64,000 nucleotides of DNA from an uncultured candidate division Zixibacteria bacterium (GTDB lineage Bacteria > Zixibacteria > MSB-5A5 > GN15 > FEB-12): contig CAWDXE010000006.1 in the NCBI GenBank assembly GCA_963806185.1, positions 1-64,000 on the forward strand, read 5' to 3'. Each line of letters begins with the position of its first letter. The stretch's first letter is position 1. Both the position numbers and the translations under genes were made by a program. The notes under the pieces are model-generated. The model made no database searches and was not told the origin of the DNA. It saw only the letters and a program-made list of their open reading frames with translations. Shown one piece after another: positions 2 to 21,215 of the stretch.

Positions 2-1183
2 GACTGCGACGAGGACGACTGCGATAAGGACTTTCTGCGGACCGAGATCACCTTTGTCAATTTCGTCCGCGACCGAGCCTTGGCCGACATTCATGTACTG
101 GTGGCCAAGGAAGACAACGCCGCCGGCGGCGACAATTTCAAACTGGAATTCATCGGCAAGGCAATGTTCGACGGAATGCGCGACACGCTGCAGTTTTTCA
201 CCCAGCCCTCGGACACTGACGATAAGATTCGCACGCAACTCGCCGCTACTGTTCGGCTTGGACTGATGCGTTTTGTCGCCCGCACGCCGATCGCCCGGGA
301 CGTGGTAATTTCGTACGAGCGACCAGCCAAGCCCGCCGAGGTGAAAGACAAGTGGAACTACTGGGTGTTTGAAATCAGTATGAACGGTTGGTTCCAGGGA
401 CAGCAATCATTCAAAGAATGGCAGCTCTGGACCAACTGGCAGGCCCGGCGCGTGACCGAAAAAAACAAGCTGTACCTTTCCTTCTGGGCCGAACACAGTG
501 AGGAGGTCTACAAATATGAGGCGTGGGTGGTGGACCCGGACGATTCAATTCCGGTACTCCGTTCCTTCCGGTCAGTGAAGGCCCTGCAAAGCGAGGGGGG
601 CGAGATCGAACAATATTGGGGACTCGACGGGCACTGGTCGGTGGGCAGCGGTATCGGGTTTTCCACCTCGGAGTTCTCCAATCTCGATGGTCAGACTTAC
701 GTCTTCGGCGGACTCGAGTACAGCATCTTTCCCTACAAAGAATCGACCCGGCGTGAAATACAGCTGCGCACCACGCTGCTGGAGATCTATGCCGACTACA
801 TTGATGAGACCATTTTCAATAAGCGCAATCAATGGTTGACCAAGGGGAAGCTTTCGGCCAATATCAAATTCACACAGCCCTGGGGATCGACGGGGATATA
901 CCTGGAAGGCTCCGAGTATCTCCACGACTTTGATCGATACCGCCTCCAAATACAGGGGGATCTCTCCTTACGACTGTTCGCGGGCTTTGAGTTGGAACTC
1001 AACGGATGGGCGGCCAAGATACACGATCAGGTCTCGCTGGCCAAAGGTGACGCCACGGACGAGGACGTACTCCTGCAGCGGCGGCAGCTGGCCACCAGCT
1101 ATCAATACAATCTTTCAGTGGGGATCAGTTATACATTCGGATCGGTGTACACAAATATCGTGAATCCGCGCTTTGGCGGGTGA
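2..1183 (+). CDS. Putative outer-membrane beta-barrel protein, 5'-truncated by window edge
   Basis: Frame is open from position 2 (DCDEDDCDKDFLRTEITFVNFVRDRALADIHVL). Amphipathic beta-strands with aromatic residues; ends SVGISYTFGSVYTNIVNPRFGG. Confidence 0.65.
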   Translation, partial: DCDEDDCDKDFLRTEITFVNFVRDRALADIHVLVAKEDNAAGGDNFKLEFIGKAMFDGMRDTLQFFTQPSDTDDKIRTQLAATVRLGLMRFVARTPIARDVVISYERPAKPAEVKDKWNYWVFEISMNGWFQGQQSFKEWQLWTNWQARRVTEKNKLYLSFWAEHSEEVYKYEAWVVDPDDSIPVLRSFRSVKALQSEGGEIEQYWGLDGHWSVGSGIGFSTSEFSNLDGQTYVFGGLEYSIFPYKESTRREIQLRTTLLEIYADYIDETIFNKRNQWLTKGKLSANIKFTQPWGSTGIYLEGSEYLHDFDRYRLQIQGDLSLRLFAGFELELNGWAAKIHDQVSLAKGDATDEDVLLQRRQLATSYQYNLSVGISYTFGSVYTNIVNPRFGG

Positions 1184-10883: not shown

Positions 10884-12595
10884 ATGGCAAATTTCCAAGG
10901 GTACGAAAAACATACGAACGGGTTTCACCTGGTCAATCGCCGAAAAGGAACTGGGGTATACGCCCGGGGACGACATCAATATCGGCTGGTACTGCTCCGA
11001 CCGGATCTGTCAAATGGGCAAGGCCGACAAGCTCGGTCTGATCTGGCAGGGCATGACCGGCACGAAAAGAAATACACCTACAACGACATTCGTCTGGCCA
11101 GCAACACGATCGGCGCCTTTCTGCGCGGACTGGGGATCGATGCCGGGCGACCGGGTCTGCCTGTTCATGGACAAGATTCCTGAGTTGTACCTGGGCTTTG
11201 TCGGGGTGCTCAAAATCGGCGCCGTCGCGCAGCCGCTGTTTTCCGCCTTTGGCGAGGAATCACTGTTTGTCCGCCTGAGCAACGCCGAGACATGCGCCAT
11301 CATCACCCAGCGCAAGCATGTCGGCAAGGTTCGCAAGATCATTCACGAACTGCCGCACCTGAAACATATCATCGTCGTCGATTACGACGGCAAAAAGCCG
11401 CTGCAGGATCGGGAAGTCGCCTTCTCGCTGGAAGATGCGCCCAAAGTTGAGCATATCGACATTCATCCCACCAAGGCGGAGTCGCCGTCGGTCCTGCATT
11501 ACACTTCCGGCACGACCGGTCTTCCCAAAGGAGTGCAGCACGTTCATTACTCGCTGATGTCGCAGTACCTGACGACCAAGTGGGTGCTGGACATCAACGA
11601 CGACGACATCTACTGGTGCACGGCCGATCCGGGCTGGGTAACAGGTACTTCGTACGGCATCATCGGCGCCGTTTGCGACCGGCGTCACCCAGTGTGTGAC
11701 CGACATCGGTTTTTCGGCCGAAGCCTGGTACCGCTTTATCGAGAAATACAAGATTACCATCTGGTACTCCGCGCCGACCGCCATTCGCTCGCTGATGAAG
11801 GCGGGTGATGAGGTCGTCAAGAAGTTCGACCTCTCCTCTCTGCGCCATCTGGCCAGTGTGGGCGAGCCGCTCAATGCCGAAGCGGTCATCTGGTCACAGC
11901 GCGTGTTCGGTCTTCCGTTCCACGATACGTACTGGCAGACCGAGACTGGGTCGATCATGATCACGAATTTCCCCGGCATGAAGATCAAGCCGGGATCGAT
12001 GGGAAGAGCGTTTCCGGGCATTACGGCGACTGTGCTCGACGCCAAGACACTATGAACCAATTCAGGAACGGGGGCGTGTCGGCCTGATTGCGTTCAAGCC
12101 GGATTGGCCGTCCCGGATGCGCGGCTACTGGAACAACGAAGCGACGTTCCAGGGCAAGTTCAAGAACGGGTGGTATCTCTCCGGCGATCGCTCAAGCATC
12201 GACAACGAAGGGTACTTCTGGTTCACCGGGCGCGATGATGATATCATCAATACCGGCCGGCCATCTGGTCAGTCCGTTCGAAGTGGAGTCGGCGCTGCTC
12301 GAGCATCCGGCCGTGGCCGAATCGGCGGTTGTCGCCAAACCGGACGAGATCAACATGGAAGTCGTCAAGGCCTTCGTGCTTACTCAAACCGGGGAATACC
12401 GCCAGCGCCGAGCTCGAACTGGATATCATGAATTTCATCCGCAAGAGACTCTCTCCGCTGGCTATGCCGCAGGAGATCGAATATGTACCGTCTCTCCCCA
12501 AGACCCGCTCCGGCAAGATCATGCGACGACTGCTGCGGGCCAAGGAGTGGGGCGAGGAGATCGGCGATACCTCAACACTGGAAAACGACGATTAA
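10884..12595 (+). CDS. acsA: Acetate-CoA ligase-like adenylation enzyme (several apparent frameshifts)
   Basis: [57 protein letters not shown] and [11 protein letters not shown] are split across successive frames. Confidence 0.8.
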
Positions 12596-12617
12596 GCGAT
12601 AGCTCAGGAGGCATTGT

Positions 12618-12867
12618 GTGGAAAGTAATGTCAAAGACATCGTACTCACCTACGTCAAGAATGAATATCTCGAGGACGAGGATCAGGAACTCACCTACGA
12701 CACGCCGTTGATTTCGGGCGGGATTGTCGATTCGTTCTCGATGGTGTCGCTCAAGCGGTTTCTGGAGAACAAGTACAAGATTTCGATTCCGGATGACAAA
12801 GCGACGCCTGAAGCGTTCGATTCGGTGAACAAGATCGTCACACTTGTGCAAAGAGTTTGTGAAATAG
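12618..12867 (+). CDS. Stand-alone acyl carrier protein (one extra A near 12851 hides the TAG at 12865-12867)
   Basis: [20 protein letters not shown] phosphopantetheine-attachment motif; acidic, ~82 aa. Confidence 0.85.
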
Positions 12868-16542: not shown

Positions 16543-17046
16543 TCACTCTCCGTAATCATCGTCCGGTCCGAACTGGACGAAACTTCCCCAATCTGAAATG
16601 TATAAACCTTGCGAGACGTGGTGCCGAAACGACGACCATTCCCAATCGATTGCCTTGCTCGCGAACCCGTGTTTAACCGGATTGTAATGGATGTAATCGA
16701 GATGGTGATGAAGATCGTCATCATCGCGAATGATGTGATCCCAGAACCTCGGCTGCCAAAGGCGGTTTGTCTCCAGCCGCTCCGTCGCTGATTTTCTCCA
16801 TGTGTACGTCAATTTGAGCCGTCGAATTATCTCGGCGAGACTGGCGTGCTGCGGGTCGATAATCGCATGGAAGTGATTCGGCATAAGGACATACGCCTGC
16901 ATTCGAAATTCGATAACCGTTCGCATGTGTTTCCAAGCATCTAAGAAAGCCGAGGGATGGTCCAATAGAATCGGCCTTCGCCGGGCGGTAACGACAGAGA
17001 TGAAGTAGACTTGGCCGTCAGAGTAGTAACGTTTGAGCTTTGACAT
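16543..17046 (-). mobile_element. rayT: REP-associated tyrosine transposase (RAYT / TnpA-REP, HUH-Y1 family)
   Basis: MSKLKRYY...YFISVVT, PNHFHAII (HUH), LWQPRFWDHIIRD, YIHYNPVKHG (catalytic Tyr); flanked by REPs on both sides. Confidence 0.92.
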
Positions 17047-17054
17047 TCGAAGAT

Positions 17055-17284
17055 GGCAGCACCATTCGCTAAGAAGCGAATTCGGTGCTGCCCTACCTCC
17101 GAACGCAAAATCCGACATATGACTGACAGCGACGGTCAGTCAAAACGCAGACTTTCAAGATTCTTGATCATTGTGACGTAGGGCAGCACCGGAGCGAGTC
17201 TTCGAGCTGGTGCTGCCGATTCGACTTCTCGCTAACGGAGAAGGCAGGTCCCCGCGCAGAGAAGCGCGTCCGGACCCGCCCTAC
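17055..17284. repeat. REPs upstream of RAYT: B-like (-) 17055-17096, type A (+) 17178-17217, type C (-) 17243-17284
   Basis: All three carry a GTAG/CTAC foot and GGCAG arms. Confidence 0.9.
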
Positions 17285-17306: not shown

Positions 17307-17932
17307 CTAAATTTCCTCTGGTCGTAGCCCCATCCCCTTCAGCGCCTCGAGCAATTGCTGCTTGTTGGCCATGGAGATCTGGCGCCCCTGGAGCGGGAAA
17401 GCGGGAATGGTCCGGCAGTACTGCCGCAGCTTCACCACCGGCATCGCCTCAAGGTCGGCTGTCGAAAGTTGAGCAGGTGTCGGCTTCGGCGGAGTCGACT
17501 CAACGGTCGGCATCGGCTCTTTAACTACGGGTCTGGGTTTTGCCGCAGTGCGCCGAGGTGTAGCCGCACGGATCACCTCCGATCGCACGCTTACTTTCGG
17601 GAGCACTGGTGCGGGAGCATTCACGACGGCGGCGTGTCCACCCGGTCGACAGATCGCGTGTGGTGGCGAGGAGCGACGTCGAGCGCGTCGTGCGGTTTCG
17701 GGATCACGTGTGATGCCACCAGCAATCCCAGACGCTGGCACGCGCGTGCTCCGGCCTCGACCGCCGCTTGCACCGCCGCCAGTTCACCCTCGATCTTGAG
17801 TGTGACAGTGGGCGCATCTGACGGTCCGATCGCGGAGATGATAACATCGGCGGTTTTCGCCGCGACGTCAGTCGCCTCGATCGCGCCGATGAGGCCGCGC
17901 GTTTCTATCAAGCCCAGCGCTCGGTGCGACAT
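17307..17932 (-). CDS. BMC shell-domain protein with Pro-rich linker and C-terminal helical extension (frameshift ~17670)
   Basis: ALGLIETRGLIGAIEATDVAAKTADV...GELAAVQAAVEAG...HVIPKPH is the BMC domain; LEAMPVVKLRQYCR...ISMANKQQLL continues in the next frame. Confidence 0.8.
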
Positions 17933-18002
17933 ACGTCGTAAAGTATGCTAACTCACCCAAAGTACACGACTAAAAACTGCGGCGGGAAATGGCGATTGTC
18001 TG

Positions 18003-18041
18003 AAAAAATTATGCCGCCCGCCTCCCCTCGCGCGGACGGCA
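18003..18041 (-). terminator. Intrinsic terminator, minus strand
   Basis: TGCCGTCCGC/GCGGGCGGCA 10-bp stem; one pair is G:U on minus but a C-A mismatch on plus; followed by TAATTTTTT. Confidence 0.75.
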
Positions 18042-18130
18042 CTCTGCCAGAGAAGTACTGAGGAAACAAGAAAAGAGAAAAGGAGCTTGTCACTTCTGCG
18101 TGACTCTGCATCCTGGATAAGAATGACAGA
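18003..18130 (-). ncRNA. Candidate ~125-nt small RNA
   Basis: Sigma54-like motif upstream, hairpin GTCAC-GCAGAA-GTGAC, pyrimidine tract CTCCTTTTCTCTTTTCTTGTTTCCTC, terminator stem plus U-run. The 5' end is estimated. Confidence 0.5.
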
Positions 18131-18141
18131 CGACTCATATA

Positions 18142-18157
18142 ACAAGAATCCGTGCCA
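18142..18157 (-). promoter_or_regulatory. Sigma54 -24/-12-like promoter (imperfect)
   Basis: TGGCACG-GATTC-TTGT: perfect -24 element, but spacing is one nt longer than consensus and -12 reads GT instead of GC. Confidence 0.4.
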
Positions 18158-18327
18158 CCGCGCTCGGCGAACTCCAATCACACAGCAAGTAATTGTAATT
18201 AGCAAGTTATACTGTGCTCGTCAGTCGCTCGCGTCGAATCGCCGACACGAATTCGTACGATTTGTACGAGCCGCATCTCCCATGCGGAGATCAACGCGTT
18301 GTCTAGCAAACGATTAACAATTCAGAC

Positions 18328-18364
18328 AAAAAAGTAGCGGGGTCGTAACGCCATACGACCCCGC
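18328..18364 (-). terminator. Terminator of the TPR-sigma54 activator operon
   Basis: GCGGGGTCGTA/TACGACCCCGC 11-bp perfect stem followed by TACTTTTTT on minus. Confidence 0.85.
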
Positions 18365-18412
18365 CGGAATGAACCATGCGAATAGTTCAGGTCTTTGGAG
18401 CATAACTAGACC

Positions 18413-20668
18413 TCAGTTCGGAGCACCCACGGGTGCGGCAATGCCGTACCGTTTCAGTTTCATCCGCACTGTGGCCTCGTGAACGCCCAGCAGTCTCGCC
18501 GCTTCGCTCTTGTTGCCGTGCGCGGCCAAAGAGCGCTCGGTGATGAGCTGGCGTTCGAATTTCTCAACCCGATCGAAGAAATTCCCGTCGGCCGGCACCG
18601 TCGTCCCGGCAAAGATGGTGCGTGCCACCTCCTCCAGCTTGCCGTCGCTGACGAGTTGGGTCATGACTTCGAGCCGTTTGATCTTATTGGCCAGTTCGCG
18701 CACGTTGCCCGGCCAGTCGTAATCCATGAACTGGCGGACAAGCGCGCCGGCCGGCAATTCGCCTTCGGCCAGTAACCCGGCCTGTTGCAGGAAGTAGTTG
18801 ACGAGAAGCGGGATATCCTCCCGTCGCTCGCGGAGCGGCGGAATTGAAACGCAATGCCGCTCAGCCGGTAGTAAAGGTCGCGTCGGAACTTCGCCCTCCT
18901 CGACCATCTTCTCCAGGTCGCAGTTGGTGGCGGCGACCAGTTTGATGTCGAGGTCGATCTCGTTGGTGGCTCCGAGCGGGAGGACGCGACGGCGCTCCAG
19001 CACCGCGAGCAATTTCGCCTGCAGGGCGAGCGGCATGTCGCCGATTTCATCCAATAAAAGGACACCTCCGTTGGCCGCCACAAATAGCCCGATCTTTGCC
19101 GAATCGGCTCCGGTAAATGCCCCCTTGGCGAAGCCAAAGAGTTCGGACTCCAGTAGTGATTCGGGCACTGACGCACAATTGATGGCCACGTACGGTCCGT
19201 CGGGACGGACGACCGAATGGAAGTAGCGAGCCAGATGGTCCTTGCCGACGCCGGTCTCACCGGTGATCAGGATCGCCAGATCCGACTTGGCAAAGAGCGG
19301 AAGTTGCGCCTTGAAACGATTAATATCCGGGCACGACGTAATGTAGTCGCTCGTCTGCACACCAGCGGTCGCTCGCTTCGGATGGGTGTTGGCGATCAAC
19401 TCGATACCGGCAAGGGCGTCGATTTTCCGCGCGATCTTTTCCAAATAGGTCGGGAGCCCAAATCGCGCGTAGGCCTCCTCGGCCCGGAACAGGTAGTTCA
19501 CCCGTTGCCGAATACCAAACGACTCGCAATCGCCTGCTGCCGTCAGTGTCTGCGCGAATTCGTAGCGCGCCCCGCCATCCTCGAGTTGTTCCATCGCCTG
19601 GCTAAACAGCCTGCGAGCATCCTCGGCTTTGCCGGCAAGATGCGCGATCTGCGCCTTGAGCCTGAGCAATGAACCCAGCTCAACGCGATCATTGGCCTTC
19701 TCAAAAATGACCCAGCTGTGGGAGACGAATTTCTGCGCCATGCGCTCGTTGCGCACACGCAGGTAGACTTCGCCGAGATGACGCATGACGCGGGCGGCCA
19801 GCGTGGTTTCCGGACCGATTTTTTCGGCTTCAACCAGCGCTAGTTCCAGCATGCGCCGGGCCTCATCCAATTGACCCAGCTGGTAGTTCAATTCACCGAG
19901 GTACGACAGATAGATGACCTCATCGCGCTTGGACTGGCTGGCGATGATACCCGGGTAGGCCGTCTGCAGCGCCTTTTCCGCTTTGGCATAGTCGGCCATC
20001 TGCAGGTAGACATACGCGAGCGAAAGGTTGGCGCGCGACAAATCCAGTTCGTCGTGCAGCTCTGCCGACAAGTCGATGTTGATCAGGAGGTGTTTCTCCG
20101 CTTCGGCCAGTTCGCCGATAAACGTGTAGATACGGCCGATATTGCCCATCATGAAGGCTAGCTTCTTTTTGTCGTCGAGCCGGCGGGCGATTTCCACGGC
20201 ATCCATCAATACGTTCAGGGCATTACGATAGTCGGTACGGCGGAAGAGCATGCCGGCCAGACCGTTGAGAGCGCGGCTCTGACCCTCGAGATTGTCGTTG
20301 CGACGAAAGATCGATTCGGCGTCGCGGTACGACGTCTCCGCTTCTTTGAACTGGCCGAGGTCGCGCAGGATATTGCCGAGCGTGACGCATACATCGGCCA
20401 GGAGAATCGTGTCCCCATCCTTGGCAGCGGCGGCCTGCGCCAGTCGCCCAGTCTTGAGGGCGGTGGGCAGGTCATTCGACGCCAGATAGGCGCGCGCTGC
20501 CTGGAAGTATACGTTTCCGGCCGCAGCGGGACAGAGGTCGACCAGCAGGGGACGCTGGGCCTCATACTGCTTGATGGCCGCGGCATAGTCTCGTTTGCCT
20601 ACCAGCTCCGCAAGGGCGTTTGCCAGTGATTGGCCGAGTGCTATGTCGTAATTTTGGTGAGTACGCAT
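18413..20668 (-). CDS. Sigma54-dependent enhancer-binding protein with N-terminal TPR array and Fis-type HTH
   Basis: ~420 aa of TPR-like helices; GETGVGK Walker A, GAFTGA, LDEIG Walker B, WPGNVREL, GNKSEAARLLGV. Compensating frameshifts near 18850-18895 move FRRDLYYRL into another frame. Confidence 0.92.
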   Translation of the reverse strand: MRTHQNYDIALGQSLANALAELVGKRDYAAAIKQYEAQRPLLVDLCPAAAGNVYFQAARAYLASNDLPTALKTGRLAQAAAAKDGDTILLADVCVTLGNILRDLGQFKEAETSYRDAESIFRRNDNLEGQSRALNGLAGMLFRRTDYRNALNVLMDAVEIARRLDDKKKLAFMMGNIGRIYTFIGELAEAEKHLLINIDLSAELHDELDLSRANLSLAYVYLQMADYAKAEKALQTAYPGIIASQSKRDEVIYLSYLGELNYQLGQLDEARRMLELALVEAEKIGPETTLAARVMRHLGEVYLRVRNERMAQKFVSHSWVIFEKANDRVELGSLLRLKAQIAHLAGKAEDARRLFSQAMEQLEDGGARYEFAQTLTAAGDCESFGIRQRVNYLFRAEEAYARFGLPTYLEKIARKIDALAGIELIANTHPKRATAGVQTSDYITSCPDINRFKAQLPLFAKSDLAILITGETGVGKDHLARYFHSVVRPDGPYVAINCASVPESLLESELFGFAKGAFTGADSAKIGLFVAANGGVLLLDEIGDMPLALQAKLLAVLERRRVLPLGATNEIDLDIKLVAATNCDLEKMVEEGEVPTRPLLPAERHCVSIPPLRERREDIPLLVNYFLQQAGLLAEGELPAGALVRQFMDYDWPGNVRELANKIKRLEVMTQLVSDGKLEEVARTIFAGTTVPADGNFFDRVEKFERQLITERSLAAHGNKSEAARLLGVHEATVRMKLKRYGIAAPVGAPN

Positions 20669-20670
20669 AG

Positions 20671-21072
20671 TTATCGTGCTCCGTCACTGACGGTTGTGGA
20701 GTTGGTGGTGGTGGCTGTACCGGTGTCGGTGGAACCGGTCTTGAGGCGCAGCTTCTGTTCGCGCATTTCGGTCATGATCCAGCGCGAAACCATGTCGACG
20801 AAATAGAGGCGCACGCGAAGCACGAGCGTCTCAGCCTCGATAATAGCCGACGGCTTTTGCCGAATGGTCGGCCGAGTTCCGGGGTCAGTATTCGGATTGG
20901 CTATGGATTGATCTTCGCCCCACGGATGGTCATCAAGGGCGCCACCGCCGGGACCATTAGTCGAGACCGCTTCGTCATGAAGCACGTAAGGCCGGTTGTA
21001 CGACCAGCCATTGGCGCCGAGTGCCAATACGCACACCAGCACCATCAGCAAAATACACAGACCGTTTCGCAT
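20671..21072 (-). CDS. Small secreted protein / putative peptide precursor (133 aa, DDHPWG motif)
   Basis: AAGGAG RBS, signal peptide, low-complexity body; stop codon 2 nt before the activator ATG. Confidence 0.75.
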   Translation of the reverse strand: MRNGLCILLMVLVCVLALGANGWSYNRPYVLHDEAVSTNGPGGGALDDHPWGEDQSIANPNTDPGTRPTIRQKPSAIIEAETLVLRVRLYFVDMVSRWIMTEMREQKLRLKTGSTDTGTATTTNSTTVSDGAR

Positions 21073-21186
21073 GGTTACACTCCTTTTGGCGTAAAGTGTA
21101 TGTTTAAACAGTTCTCTTGCGTTTTCTGTATGGCGTGAAGTAAAAGTGAGGATATGAGGAACCGGGCATCCCTACCACTGACTAAA

Positions 21187-21215
21187 AGGATACCTCAATC
21201 ATCGACCTGTGTCAA
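21187..21215 (-). promoter_or_regulatory. Sigma70-type promoter for the secreted protein / activator operon
   Basis: TTGACA-N17-TATCCT on the minus strand. Confidence 0.7.

Follow-up and report, generated by a model that had tools for sequence, protein, structure and literature searches.

The cassette analysed here, which is real, conserved and apparently undescribed, lies on the minus strand of a 64,000-nucleotide (nt) stretch of DNA from an uncultured candidate division Zixibacteria bacterium (assembly GCA_963806185.1, contig CAWDXE010000006.1, positions 1 to 64,000; this whole stretch is called the window below). It comprises the gene of a small protein with a signal-like N-terminus, the gene of a sigma54 enhancer-binding protein with an array of tetratricopeptide repeats (TPR), and a sigma54-type promoter followed by a non-coding RNA. 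An earlier reading of the letters, here called the sequence-only reading, had taken these parts for a peptide-signalling circuit, and all parts that it named were found on the minus strand where it had placed them. According to the explanation that we favour with slightly better than even confidence, a secreted peptide would act on the TPR-sigma54 activator, which would switch on the RNA; the RNA would block an anti-sigma mRNA, and an extracytoplasmic function (ECF) sigma factor would thereby be freed. The RNA half of this circuit is well supported by covariation, and the peptide half is likely.

Results

The putative propeptide and its TPR-sigma54 activator

In all 29 orthologous loci that have upstream DNA (30 loci are listed), the gene of an HxW protein lies immediately before that of the TPR-sigma54 activator. 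The 29 proteins have 110-136 residues, a signal-like N-terminus and an H-x-W-G motif, and the linkage that the sequence-only reading had proposed to look for among homologues is thus found in every one of these loci. The same holds for the conservation of HPW, since H49, W51 and G52 are invariant in the 29 sequences at a mean column identity of only 20%. The DDHPWG motif is present as that reading had described it; its view of the remaining body as of low complexity has to be corrected, because a hydrophobic segment follows the motif in most homologues. In all 29 sequences this moderately hydrophobic segment (mean 1.17) is separated from the motif by 16-42 residues, about 20-30 in most, and it reaches transmembrane hydropathy in two. 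In 29/29 proteins the N-terminus is positively charged, and a hydrophobic core and a candidate signal-peptidase site are present, the Sec signal being judged by a heuristic of charge, hydropathy and small residues at -1/-3, and the surroundings of the motif are acidic (net charge -1 to -5).

A profile of the small protein scores in 180 of 285 genomes of the phylum and in 148 of the 159 of the same order. The protein is without any Pfam or NCBIfam family, and the relatives of both it and the activator, where named, are mostly labelled Zixibacteria. Seven loci fetched from distant families again have the small protein directly before a TPR-sigma54 activator. An orphan secreted open reading frame (ORF) of 74 residues was also seen (L070, G138:C182, about 606-830, minus strand), which contains the motif twice (DDHPWGGD and DDHSWGGD) and has no adjoining activator.

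The activator matches TPR (TPR_12, E 2e-27), Sigma54_activat, an AAA lid and HTH_8 in Pfam, and it has the features of an enhancer-binding protein, namely an AAA+ domain with GAFTGA and a C-terminal Fis-type helix-turn-helix (HTH). Receiver, GAF and PAS domains are absent among its best 25 Pfam matches, which agrees with the earlier claim that the TPR array is the only sensor region. Of 41 genomes, 38 gave one single best orthologue of the activator (E<=1e-136), and rpoN is present in the source genome. The LuxO model gives 148.9 bits on the activator against a cut-off of 800.

In the predicted structure, a helical TPR solenoid spans about residues 1-425. Among 34 sequences of the TPR part, R122, R123, N176, R179 and R296 are invariant, and N135 and R248 are conserved in at least 90%. 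Comparison of the TPR model with known structures (VIA-align) gave Z scores of 31.2 for Pins, 29.9 for LGN and 28.2 for RapI (root-mean-square deviation 4.8 over 349 aligned residues), followed by Rap of phi105 with peptide (25.2), NprR-NprX (24.9) and MalT domain III (24.8); the AimR fold is also similar. Foldseek returned AAA+ matches only for the full-length model and, for the TPR model, no RRNPP entry among the matches listed. The resemblance of the modelled solenoid to peptide-binding solenoids, including those of RRNPP receptors, is suggestive but generic.

The pairing of a TPR activator with a secreted ORF extends to paralogues. Of 22 paralogous TPR activators, 20 are preceded by a secreted ORF whose acidic Trp/Leu motif is a variant one (17 recognised by a strict filter, one by separate inspection and two by a relaxed filter), and such a partner is found for 0/18 of the other sigma54 activators of the source genome. 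That genome contains two further TPR activators, each preceded by its own secreted ORF with a different motif. These paralogous pairs with different motifs strengthen the idea that the small protein could be a propeptide and the activator its receptor. A -24/-12 box lies downstream of 11 of 21 paralogous TPR activators.

At L164 (G000:C3:230941-234402 (-)), a secreted ORF with a GEHPWD motif stands before a 981-residue TPR activator, with no -24/-12 box within 900 nt downstream. At L165 (G000:C1:318863-321264 (-)), a pair with the motif TDDDPLD is followed by a gene with a CxxxCxxC motif of the radical S-adenosylmethionine (SAM) type, and a similar gene sits after a sigma54 box in L213. The arrangement of L165 recalls the peptide-controlled loci of ribosomally synthesized and post-translationally modified peptides (RiPPs) of streptococci.

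A sigma54-type promoter, two palindromes and a conserved RNA

Downstream of the activator gene, GGCAC-N5-TTGC followed by a conserved RNA was found in 23 of 30 loci, so that the downstream unit of -24/-12 promoter and terminator noted in the window is a conserved one. The other seven loci comprise one RNA with a degenerate promoter, two loci cut by contig ends and four loci of family f4 without an RNA at this place. Three f4 genomes carry the RNA apart from the activator, with its promoter and palindrome retained. One genome seems to lack the linkage between RNA and cassette, and its assembly is gapped at both places.

The palindrome TCGTA-N6-TACGA occurs at about -115 and about -205 from the -24 box. 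Among 40 RNA loci from a pattern scan, which overlap the earlier set of loci, the proximal palindrome (-100 to -130) is present in 39 and both palindromes are present in 35, compared with 0/8 chance loci that have them at these positions. Position and linkage suggest that the palindromes are binding sites of the linked activator. The sequence-only reading had placed a terminator and then a palindrome behind the activator gene; both are present, and the order needs revision in that this first terminator itself holds one of the two conserved palindromes. Because it contains a conserved palindrome, the operon terminator likely doubles as an activator site. A wider regulon in the source genome was rejected, as this locus alone has both palindromes before a -24 box.

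The non-coding unit with its own terminator is present as had been noted, with a length of about 128 nt (to about 18002). Its covariance model detects the RNA in 111 of 151 genomes of the order, nearly always in a single copy, and the model probably misses further copies, because a diverged, unlinked RNA is present in three f4 genomes; family f4 was for the same reason rejected as an RNA-less negative control. Several copies per genome, as with Qrr, were not found, there being one strong copy per genome. Rfam gave no match anywhere in the window and contains no family for the RNA. A scan of all GTDB species genomes for promoter plus seed yielded 48 loci, of which 40 match the covariance model; by record label, with the labels taken as they stand and not resolved further, these are 23 Zixibacteria, 8 'bacterium', 7 Ignavibacteriales, 1 Calditrichaeota and 1 FCB group.

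The predicted RNA has the attributes of a small RNA (sRNA) that acts in trans by base pairing: a promoter of its own, a covarying intrinsic terminator, no conserved ORF, and a conserved, co-varying pairing with the translation start of a target. Two-sided compensatory change was seen in 10 of 12 pairs of the terminator, in an alignment fitted to the model, and the terminator loop GAGGGG (window 18024-18029 (-)) is nearly invariant in 68 aligned copies. Hfq was found in 0/5 genomes, which fits the long helices of the RNA. Three other roles were rejected: a coding antisense ORF from the conserved ATGAC varies in length from 2 to 64 residues; a kissing contact of the GAGGGG loop with the 5' untranslated region (UTR) of the operon is supported in one of 21 cases; and pairing of the RNA with the propeptide ribosome-binding site (RBS) reaches p<0.05 in one of 22 (cognate -19.0 vs non-cognate -19.4 kcal/mol).

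In the distant-family loci L061, L062, L063, L065 and L066, a -24/-12-like box and a short hairpin RNA of another kind lie behind the peptide-activator pair. Transcript data consist of RNA run X1, the sole low-share run (0.05), in which no contig covers the RNA and the propeptide-activator junction lies within one 526-nt contig that has 18 differences; DNA carry-over is possible, and the contig is not used as evidence.

The anti-sigma mRNA as first predicted target

The 5' end of the RNA is the complement of a Shine-Dalgarno (SD) motif, a spacer and an AUG, and the antisense frame is not conserved; therefore this 14-mer was sought in 108 family genomes. It was found in 49 of them, and the reversed pattern gave three matches. 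The 30 loci listed comprise 11 copies of the RNA and 19 further sites, 18 of which coincide with the start of a single gene; this gene encodes a zf-HC2 anti-sigma factor and lies directly behind an ECF sigma factor gene. The 5' seed is predicted to pair over 14-18 nt with the SD motif and AUG of this gene. In the source genome seed and target have diverged from the consensus together, and 14 bp over SD/AUG can still form at C7:844887. When 14,070 candidate starts of this genome were ranked (1,513 passed a 6-mer prefilter), the anti-sigma start came second, behind a doubtful 61-residue ORF; two other zf-HC2-like genes score 18 and 12 vs 31.

Pairing with target 1 is significant (p<0.05 vs shuffles) in 22 of 30 genomes that have both parts, and the cognate score of 27.9 vs 22.1 for non-cognate combinations was reached in 0 of 10,000 permutations. 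At position -2, an A-U pair occurs in 11 rows, G-C in six and G-U in one, as counted in 18 ungapped rows after 12 had been dropped. A second helix, between the first stem of the RNA and the end of the sigma gene, is weak (9/30). An RNA stretch private to the source genome (window 18060-18074 (-)) is complementary over 15 nt to the SD region of a gene that resembles ftsZ (by eye; G000:C3:294356 (-)).

A second predicted target and the out-of-sample family f4

The complement of the second, pyrimidine-rich seed occurs in 61 of 108 genomes, and eight of 22 inspected second sites are codons 2-6 of the gene of a conserved 57-residue protein. This gene is present in 34/34 genomes searched, and its product has no match in Pfam, NCBIfam or Atlas. 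The pairing test for target 2 is passed by 19 of 29 genomes (cognate 26.0 vs 24.0, p=0.003), and in 23 of 29 the real codons of the gene give better pairing than synonymous recodings do on average.

The f4 RNAs took no part in building the model. In 3/3 genomes, which belong to two genera (p=0.003 each), the seed-2 segment of the f4 RNA covers the SD/AUG of the same anti-sigma gene with a helix of 16 bp and pairs with the 57-residue gene over 14 bp. The third codon of the latter has changed from Lys to Val in f4, with a matching change in the RNA. Family f4 thus pairs with both genes through another segment, and therefore the same two mRNAs would be held by different sequences. One f2 genome pairs with target 2 at p=0.013.

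In the source genome target 2 follows a gene for a 106-residue sigma-region-4-like protein (L161, G000:C7:563878-564596 (+)). In many genomes the leader of target 2 contains conserved GTGTATGTCAAA, GGAGGTGA and an anti-SD-like ATCCCTATT; the GTGTATGTCAA motif occurs at about seven sites of the source genome, sometimes as a 21-bp-spaced repeat. A paralogue of the 57-residue protein is encoded before a gene that by eye is M23-like and before a further ECF sigma factor gene (L162, G000:C1:140261-140407 (-)), and its leader contains TTTTCTTTGGTG, which is identical to seed 2 of several RNA homologues.

A complement of the propeptide RBS in the 3'-UTR

Within the 260 nt after the activator stop codon, a 9-15-bp complement of the propeptide RBS was found in 15 of 27 loci (p<0.05), with a cognate score of 24.3 vs 19.9 for non-cognate combinations; it is missing from the other 12. 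Matched variants occur in several genera, the source genome included (p=0.010). For this element, long-range fold-back and release as a 3'-UTR RNA are two conceivable modes of action.

Layout of the cassette and state of the assembly

The coordinates are collected in Table 1. The small-protein and activator genes are separated by 2 nt in the window and by a gap of a few nt or an overlap in homologous loci, and most homologues have a TTGAC-N16-18-TA box 80-200 nt upstream of the small-protein start codon.

Table 1. Features of the cassette, in positions of the window
Feature	Positions	Strand	Basis or remark
Sigma70-type promoter (TTGACA-N17-TATCCT) of the propeptide-activator operon	21187..21215	-	Sequence
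Small-protein RBS and start, to which the 3'-UTR anti-RBS element is complementary	21070..21090	-	Sequence, pairing analysis
133-residue signal-peptide protein, putative propeptide	20671..21072	-	ORF; 29/29 loci; hydropathy and charge
Acidic DDHPWGED motif, residues 47-54, predicted ligand core	20911..20934	-	H49, W51, G52 invariant, n=29
751-residue TPR-AAA+-HTH sigma54 enhancer-binding protein	18413..20668	-	Pfam, predicted structure, orthologues
GAFTGA of the activator	19123-19106	-	Sequence
Apparent compensating frameshift pair in the activator, likely assembly error	18837..18901	-	Reading frames, relatives
3'-UTR element complementary to the propeptide RBS/start, 11-bp helix plus 6 bp	18366..18382	-	p=0.010 here
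Operon terminator hairpin and U tract	18336..18365	-	Contains the distal palindrome TCGTA-N6-TACGA at 18358-18343 (about -201)
Proximal palindrome (about -112), predicted activator binding site	18253..18269	-	Position, conservation
Sigma54 -24/-12 promoter; TGGCACG at 18157-18151	18142..18157	-	Family consensus GGCAC-N5-TTGC
Non-coding RNA of about 128 nt (relatives: about 105 nt)	18002..18130	-	Covariance model, conservation
Seed 1, complementary over 14 bp to the anti-sigma SD and AUG	18115..18128	-	Pairs with G000:C7:844887 (-)
Pyrimidine-rich seed 2 region	18045..18082	-	Pairs with codons 2-6 of the 57-residue gene, G000:C7:564426 (+); 10 bp, p=0.07 here
RNA terminator hairpin, conserved GAGGGG loop, U tract	18001..18041	-	Compensatory changes

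The window copy departs from its relatives at several single bases. Near 18893/18845, about 16 other residues stand where relatives have RDLYYRL, a stretch that is encoded in another frame of the window copy and is intact in most relatives; the proximal palindrome has seven spacer bases vs six, and the -24/-12 spacing exceeds that of relatives by one base. These apparent single-base indels are likely assembly errors, because other genes of the window are broken as well. If the frameshift pair were real, the activator copy of the window would be damaged, and those of relatives are intact.

An acyl-CoA synthetase-like gene (window 11014-12711 (+)) is split over several frames, a sign of indel errors in the assembly. 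Directly after the RNA lies a lone BMC-domain gene (Pfam BMC; window 17307-17932 (-)), which is apparently split from its C-terminal extension and which is found 3' of the RNA in many f1 loci. A Y1_Tnp transposase gene (IS200-like/REP-associated; window 16543-17118 (-)) has inverted-repeat-like sequence on its flanks.

Discussion

A working model of the circuit comprises five steps of unequal strength. The acidic H-P-W-G motif would quite probably be the ligand of the activator's TPR solenoid. That the peptide is exported by Sec, cleaved and taken up again through an importer other than Opp as a cell-to-cell signal is a step that we favour only a little; that binding would activate rather than repress is a guess from the usual behaviour of the N-terminal domains of enhancer-binding proteins. 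Opening of the sigma54 promoter by the activator, bound to the palindromes at about -205 and -115, is very probable. With high likelihood the RNA would then pair, independently of Hfq, over the SD/AUG of the zf-HC2 anti-sigma cistron in the ECF operon and with codons 2-6 of the 57-residue gene, and would repress both. Finally, and with fair likelihood, the 3'-UTR stretch of the operon would fold back on the propeptide RBS, or be released to cover it, and would damp peptide synthesis.

The RRNPP logic that the sequence-only reading saw at the input stands in part. Propeptide and receptor genes are adjacent (29/29 loci; 20/22 paralogues), the receptor has TPRs, the heuristic recognises a Sec signal in 29/29 propeptides, and paralogous pairs exist; Opp is missing, and both proteins are too long. 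Intracellular peptide sensing via TPR receptors is described for Bacillota and their phages (PMC10075063, PMC9765709), and the published sizes are 10-100 residues for RRNPP propeptides, 21-50 for validated ones and 250-500 for receptors (PMC10075063). The activator, with 751 residues, an AAA+ domain and a Fis-type HTH, exceeds this range. In RRNPP receptors a conserved Asn contacts the peptide backbone in the TPR groove (PMC6458997). The conserved Asn residues of the TPR part here are N176 (invariant) and N135 (at least 90%).

It should be noted that a number of observations weigh against the proposed circuit. The precursor, with 133 residues (110-136 in homologues), is above the RRNPP range. 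RRNPP peptides are re-imported by an Opp-type ATP-binding cassette permease; SBP_bac_5, the Opp/Dpp binding protein, was found in only two of 60 family genomes and not in the source genome (82% complete), oligo_HPY was found in 0/1 genome searched, and with Opp absent the RRNPP import route is therefore missing. An OPT-family transporter, present in 5/5 genomes (PTR2 in 1/5), is a candidate importer. The second conserved hydrophobic stretch of the precursor would be superfluous for a simple propeptide, and the motif is nearly uniform over the order, which therefore leaves little species specificity. The TPR fold match is generic, with eukaryotic LGN and Pins outranking Rap, and the activator of the window carries its apparent frameshift pair within a conserved AAA+ stretch. 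On the side of the RNA, pairing with target 1 fails in eight of 30 genomes (three of four f3 and five f1 genomes), pairing with target 2 fails in 10 of 29, including the source genome (p=0.07), one miss having been wrongly cut, and, contrary to prediction, seed 1 does not cover the anti-sigma start of f4 in the register seen elsewhere (p 0.13-0.39). The genomes are kin, so that permutation p-values overstate; two-sided changes in different genera are nevertheless what pairing predicts.

The missing Opp would be explained by the main rival, an export monitor, which we consider unlikely. Sec would normally remove the precursor, and if export stalled, the unexported precursor would bind the co-translated activator in the same cell, the RNA then freeing an ECF envelope-stress sigma factor without any re-import. 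This would suit the tight coupling of the two genes, with their few-nt gap or overlap, a motif that hardly varies across the order, and an output consisting of an ECF sigma factor with a membrane-type zf-HC2 anti-sigma factor. However, one genome has three pairs with different motifs, one of them upstream of a CxxxCxxC radical-SAM-type gene, and since several export monitors would be redundant and several signals are normal for peptide sensing, the three pairs disfavour this explanation; the orphan peptide with two motifs also speaks against it.

The hydrophobic segment past the motif, found in all 29 sequences, would gain a function if the cleaved protein were held by it in the periplasm or membrane, until damage or a protease freed a fragment that returned to the same cell (autocrine), or if a membrane protein relayed the signal. 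Opp would again not be required, but only two of 29 segments have transmembrane hydropathy and a transducer gene is not seen inside the cassette, and we regard this as improbable. It is very doubtful that the small protein is not the ligand at all and is merely a co-expressed secreted product, the TPR domain sensing another protein; the activator-RNA-anti-sigma half would still hold in that case. In favour of this, TPR solenoids bind many partners. Yet a partner with a single conserved acidic Trp motif has been kept by 20/22 paralogous TPR activators vs 0/18 others, and the acidic motif would suit the conserved Arg/Asn residues of the TPR part.

A broader proposal can be formulated, which we see as evenly balanced between true and false. 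The TPR-sigma54 activators of this diderm lineage would form a family of cytoplasmic peptide receptors spread over the phylum, each with its own secreted acidic-Trp propeptide, with several dialects per genome and Opp-free import. The core member would be a quorum cascade from peptide through sigma54, an Hfq-free sRNA and anti-sigma silencing to an ECF sigma factor, with RNA feedback on the translation of the peptide.

If true, peptide communication would be extended to an uncultured phylum of sediments and the subsurface, for which none is described in the literature searched, and enhancer-binding proteins would gain a new class of input domain. Paralogous pairs with different motifs would provide a ready set of orthogonal peptide-inducible sigma54 switches. 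The ligand motif, operator, promoter, RNA and two targets are named at base-pair resolution, and the chain could therefore be rebuilt in E. coli without culturing the organism.

Comparison with known systems

No description of the system was found in the literature; the supplementary tables of RRNPP_detector, which lay outside the search, could bear on TPR-peptide pairs outside Bacillota, though the size limits of that program would exclude this pair. Each downstream step has a precedent (Qrr, FlmE, AimX), and the input module and the combination, not found in the literature searched, are apparently undescribed. By the criteria examined, the circuit is not a member of RRNPP or of LuxO/Qrr.

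With RRNPP(A) systems (Rap-Phr, NprR-NprX, PlcR-PapR, AimR-AimP) it shares the adjoining Sec-type small protein and cytoplasmic TPR regulator, the TPR fold, paralogous pairs with different motifs and perhaps the conserved Asn. In contrast to them, its effector is an AAA+ sigma54 activator and not a simple HTH or phosphatase module, its motif is internal, its precursor has 133 and its receptor 751 residues, Opp is missing, and the host belongs to the Zixibacteria, which are diderm. LuxO of Vibrio is a phosphorelay receiver protein fed by small-molecule autoinducers, and Qrr1-5 are multicopy and Hfq-dependent. As in LuxO/Qrr, an enhancer-binding protein would drive a sigma54-dependent sRNA that pairs with the ribosome-binding regions of regulators; the differences are the TPR input, one RNA copy, Hfq not found (0/5), no Rfam match and no receiver. 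The likeness to Qrr noted by the sequence-only reading is loose: it extends to a sigma54-driven RNA, now with two co-varying predicted targets, and ends at its single copy, at Hfq (0/5) and at the receiver domain.

The closest three-part precedent is arbitrium (AimP-AimR-AimX), in which a peptide, a TPR regulator and a small non-coding RNA as output are united in one cassette, AimR being an HTH factor on phages that is inhibited by its peptide (PMC6458997). It differs by lacking sigma54, the enhancer pair and an anti-sigma target. The output resembles CJnc230/FlmE of Campylobacter jejuni, an RpoN-dependent sRNA that blocks the RBS of the flgM anti-sigma mRNA and frees the sigma factor; FlmE is processed from the flgE mRNA and acts on FlgM/sigma28 in flagellar assembly (PMC11187230). 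The RNA of the cassette, by comparison, has its own promoter and enhancers, a zf-HC2 anti-sigma factor of an ECF sigma factor as target, and a peptide-paired TPR activator as input. By analogy, the circuit would thus work like RRNPP at its input, like LuxO/Qrr in its middle and like FlmE at its output.

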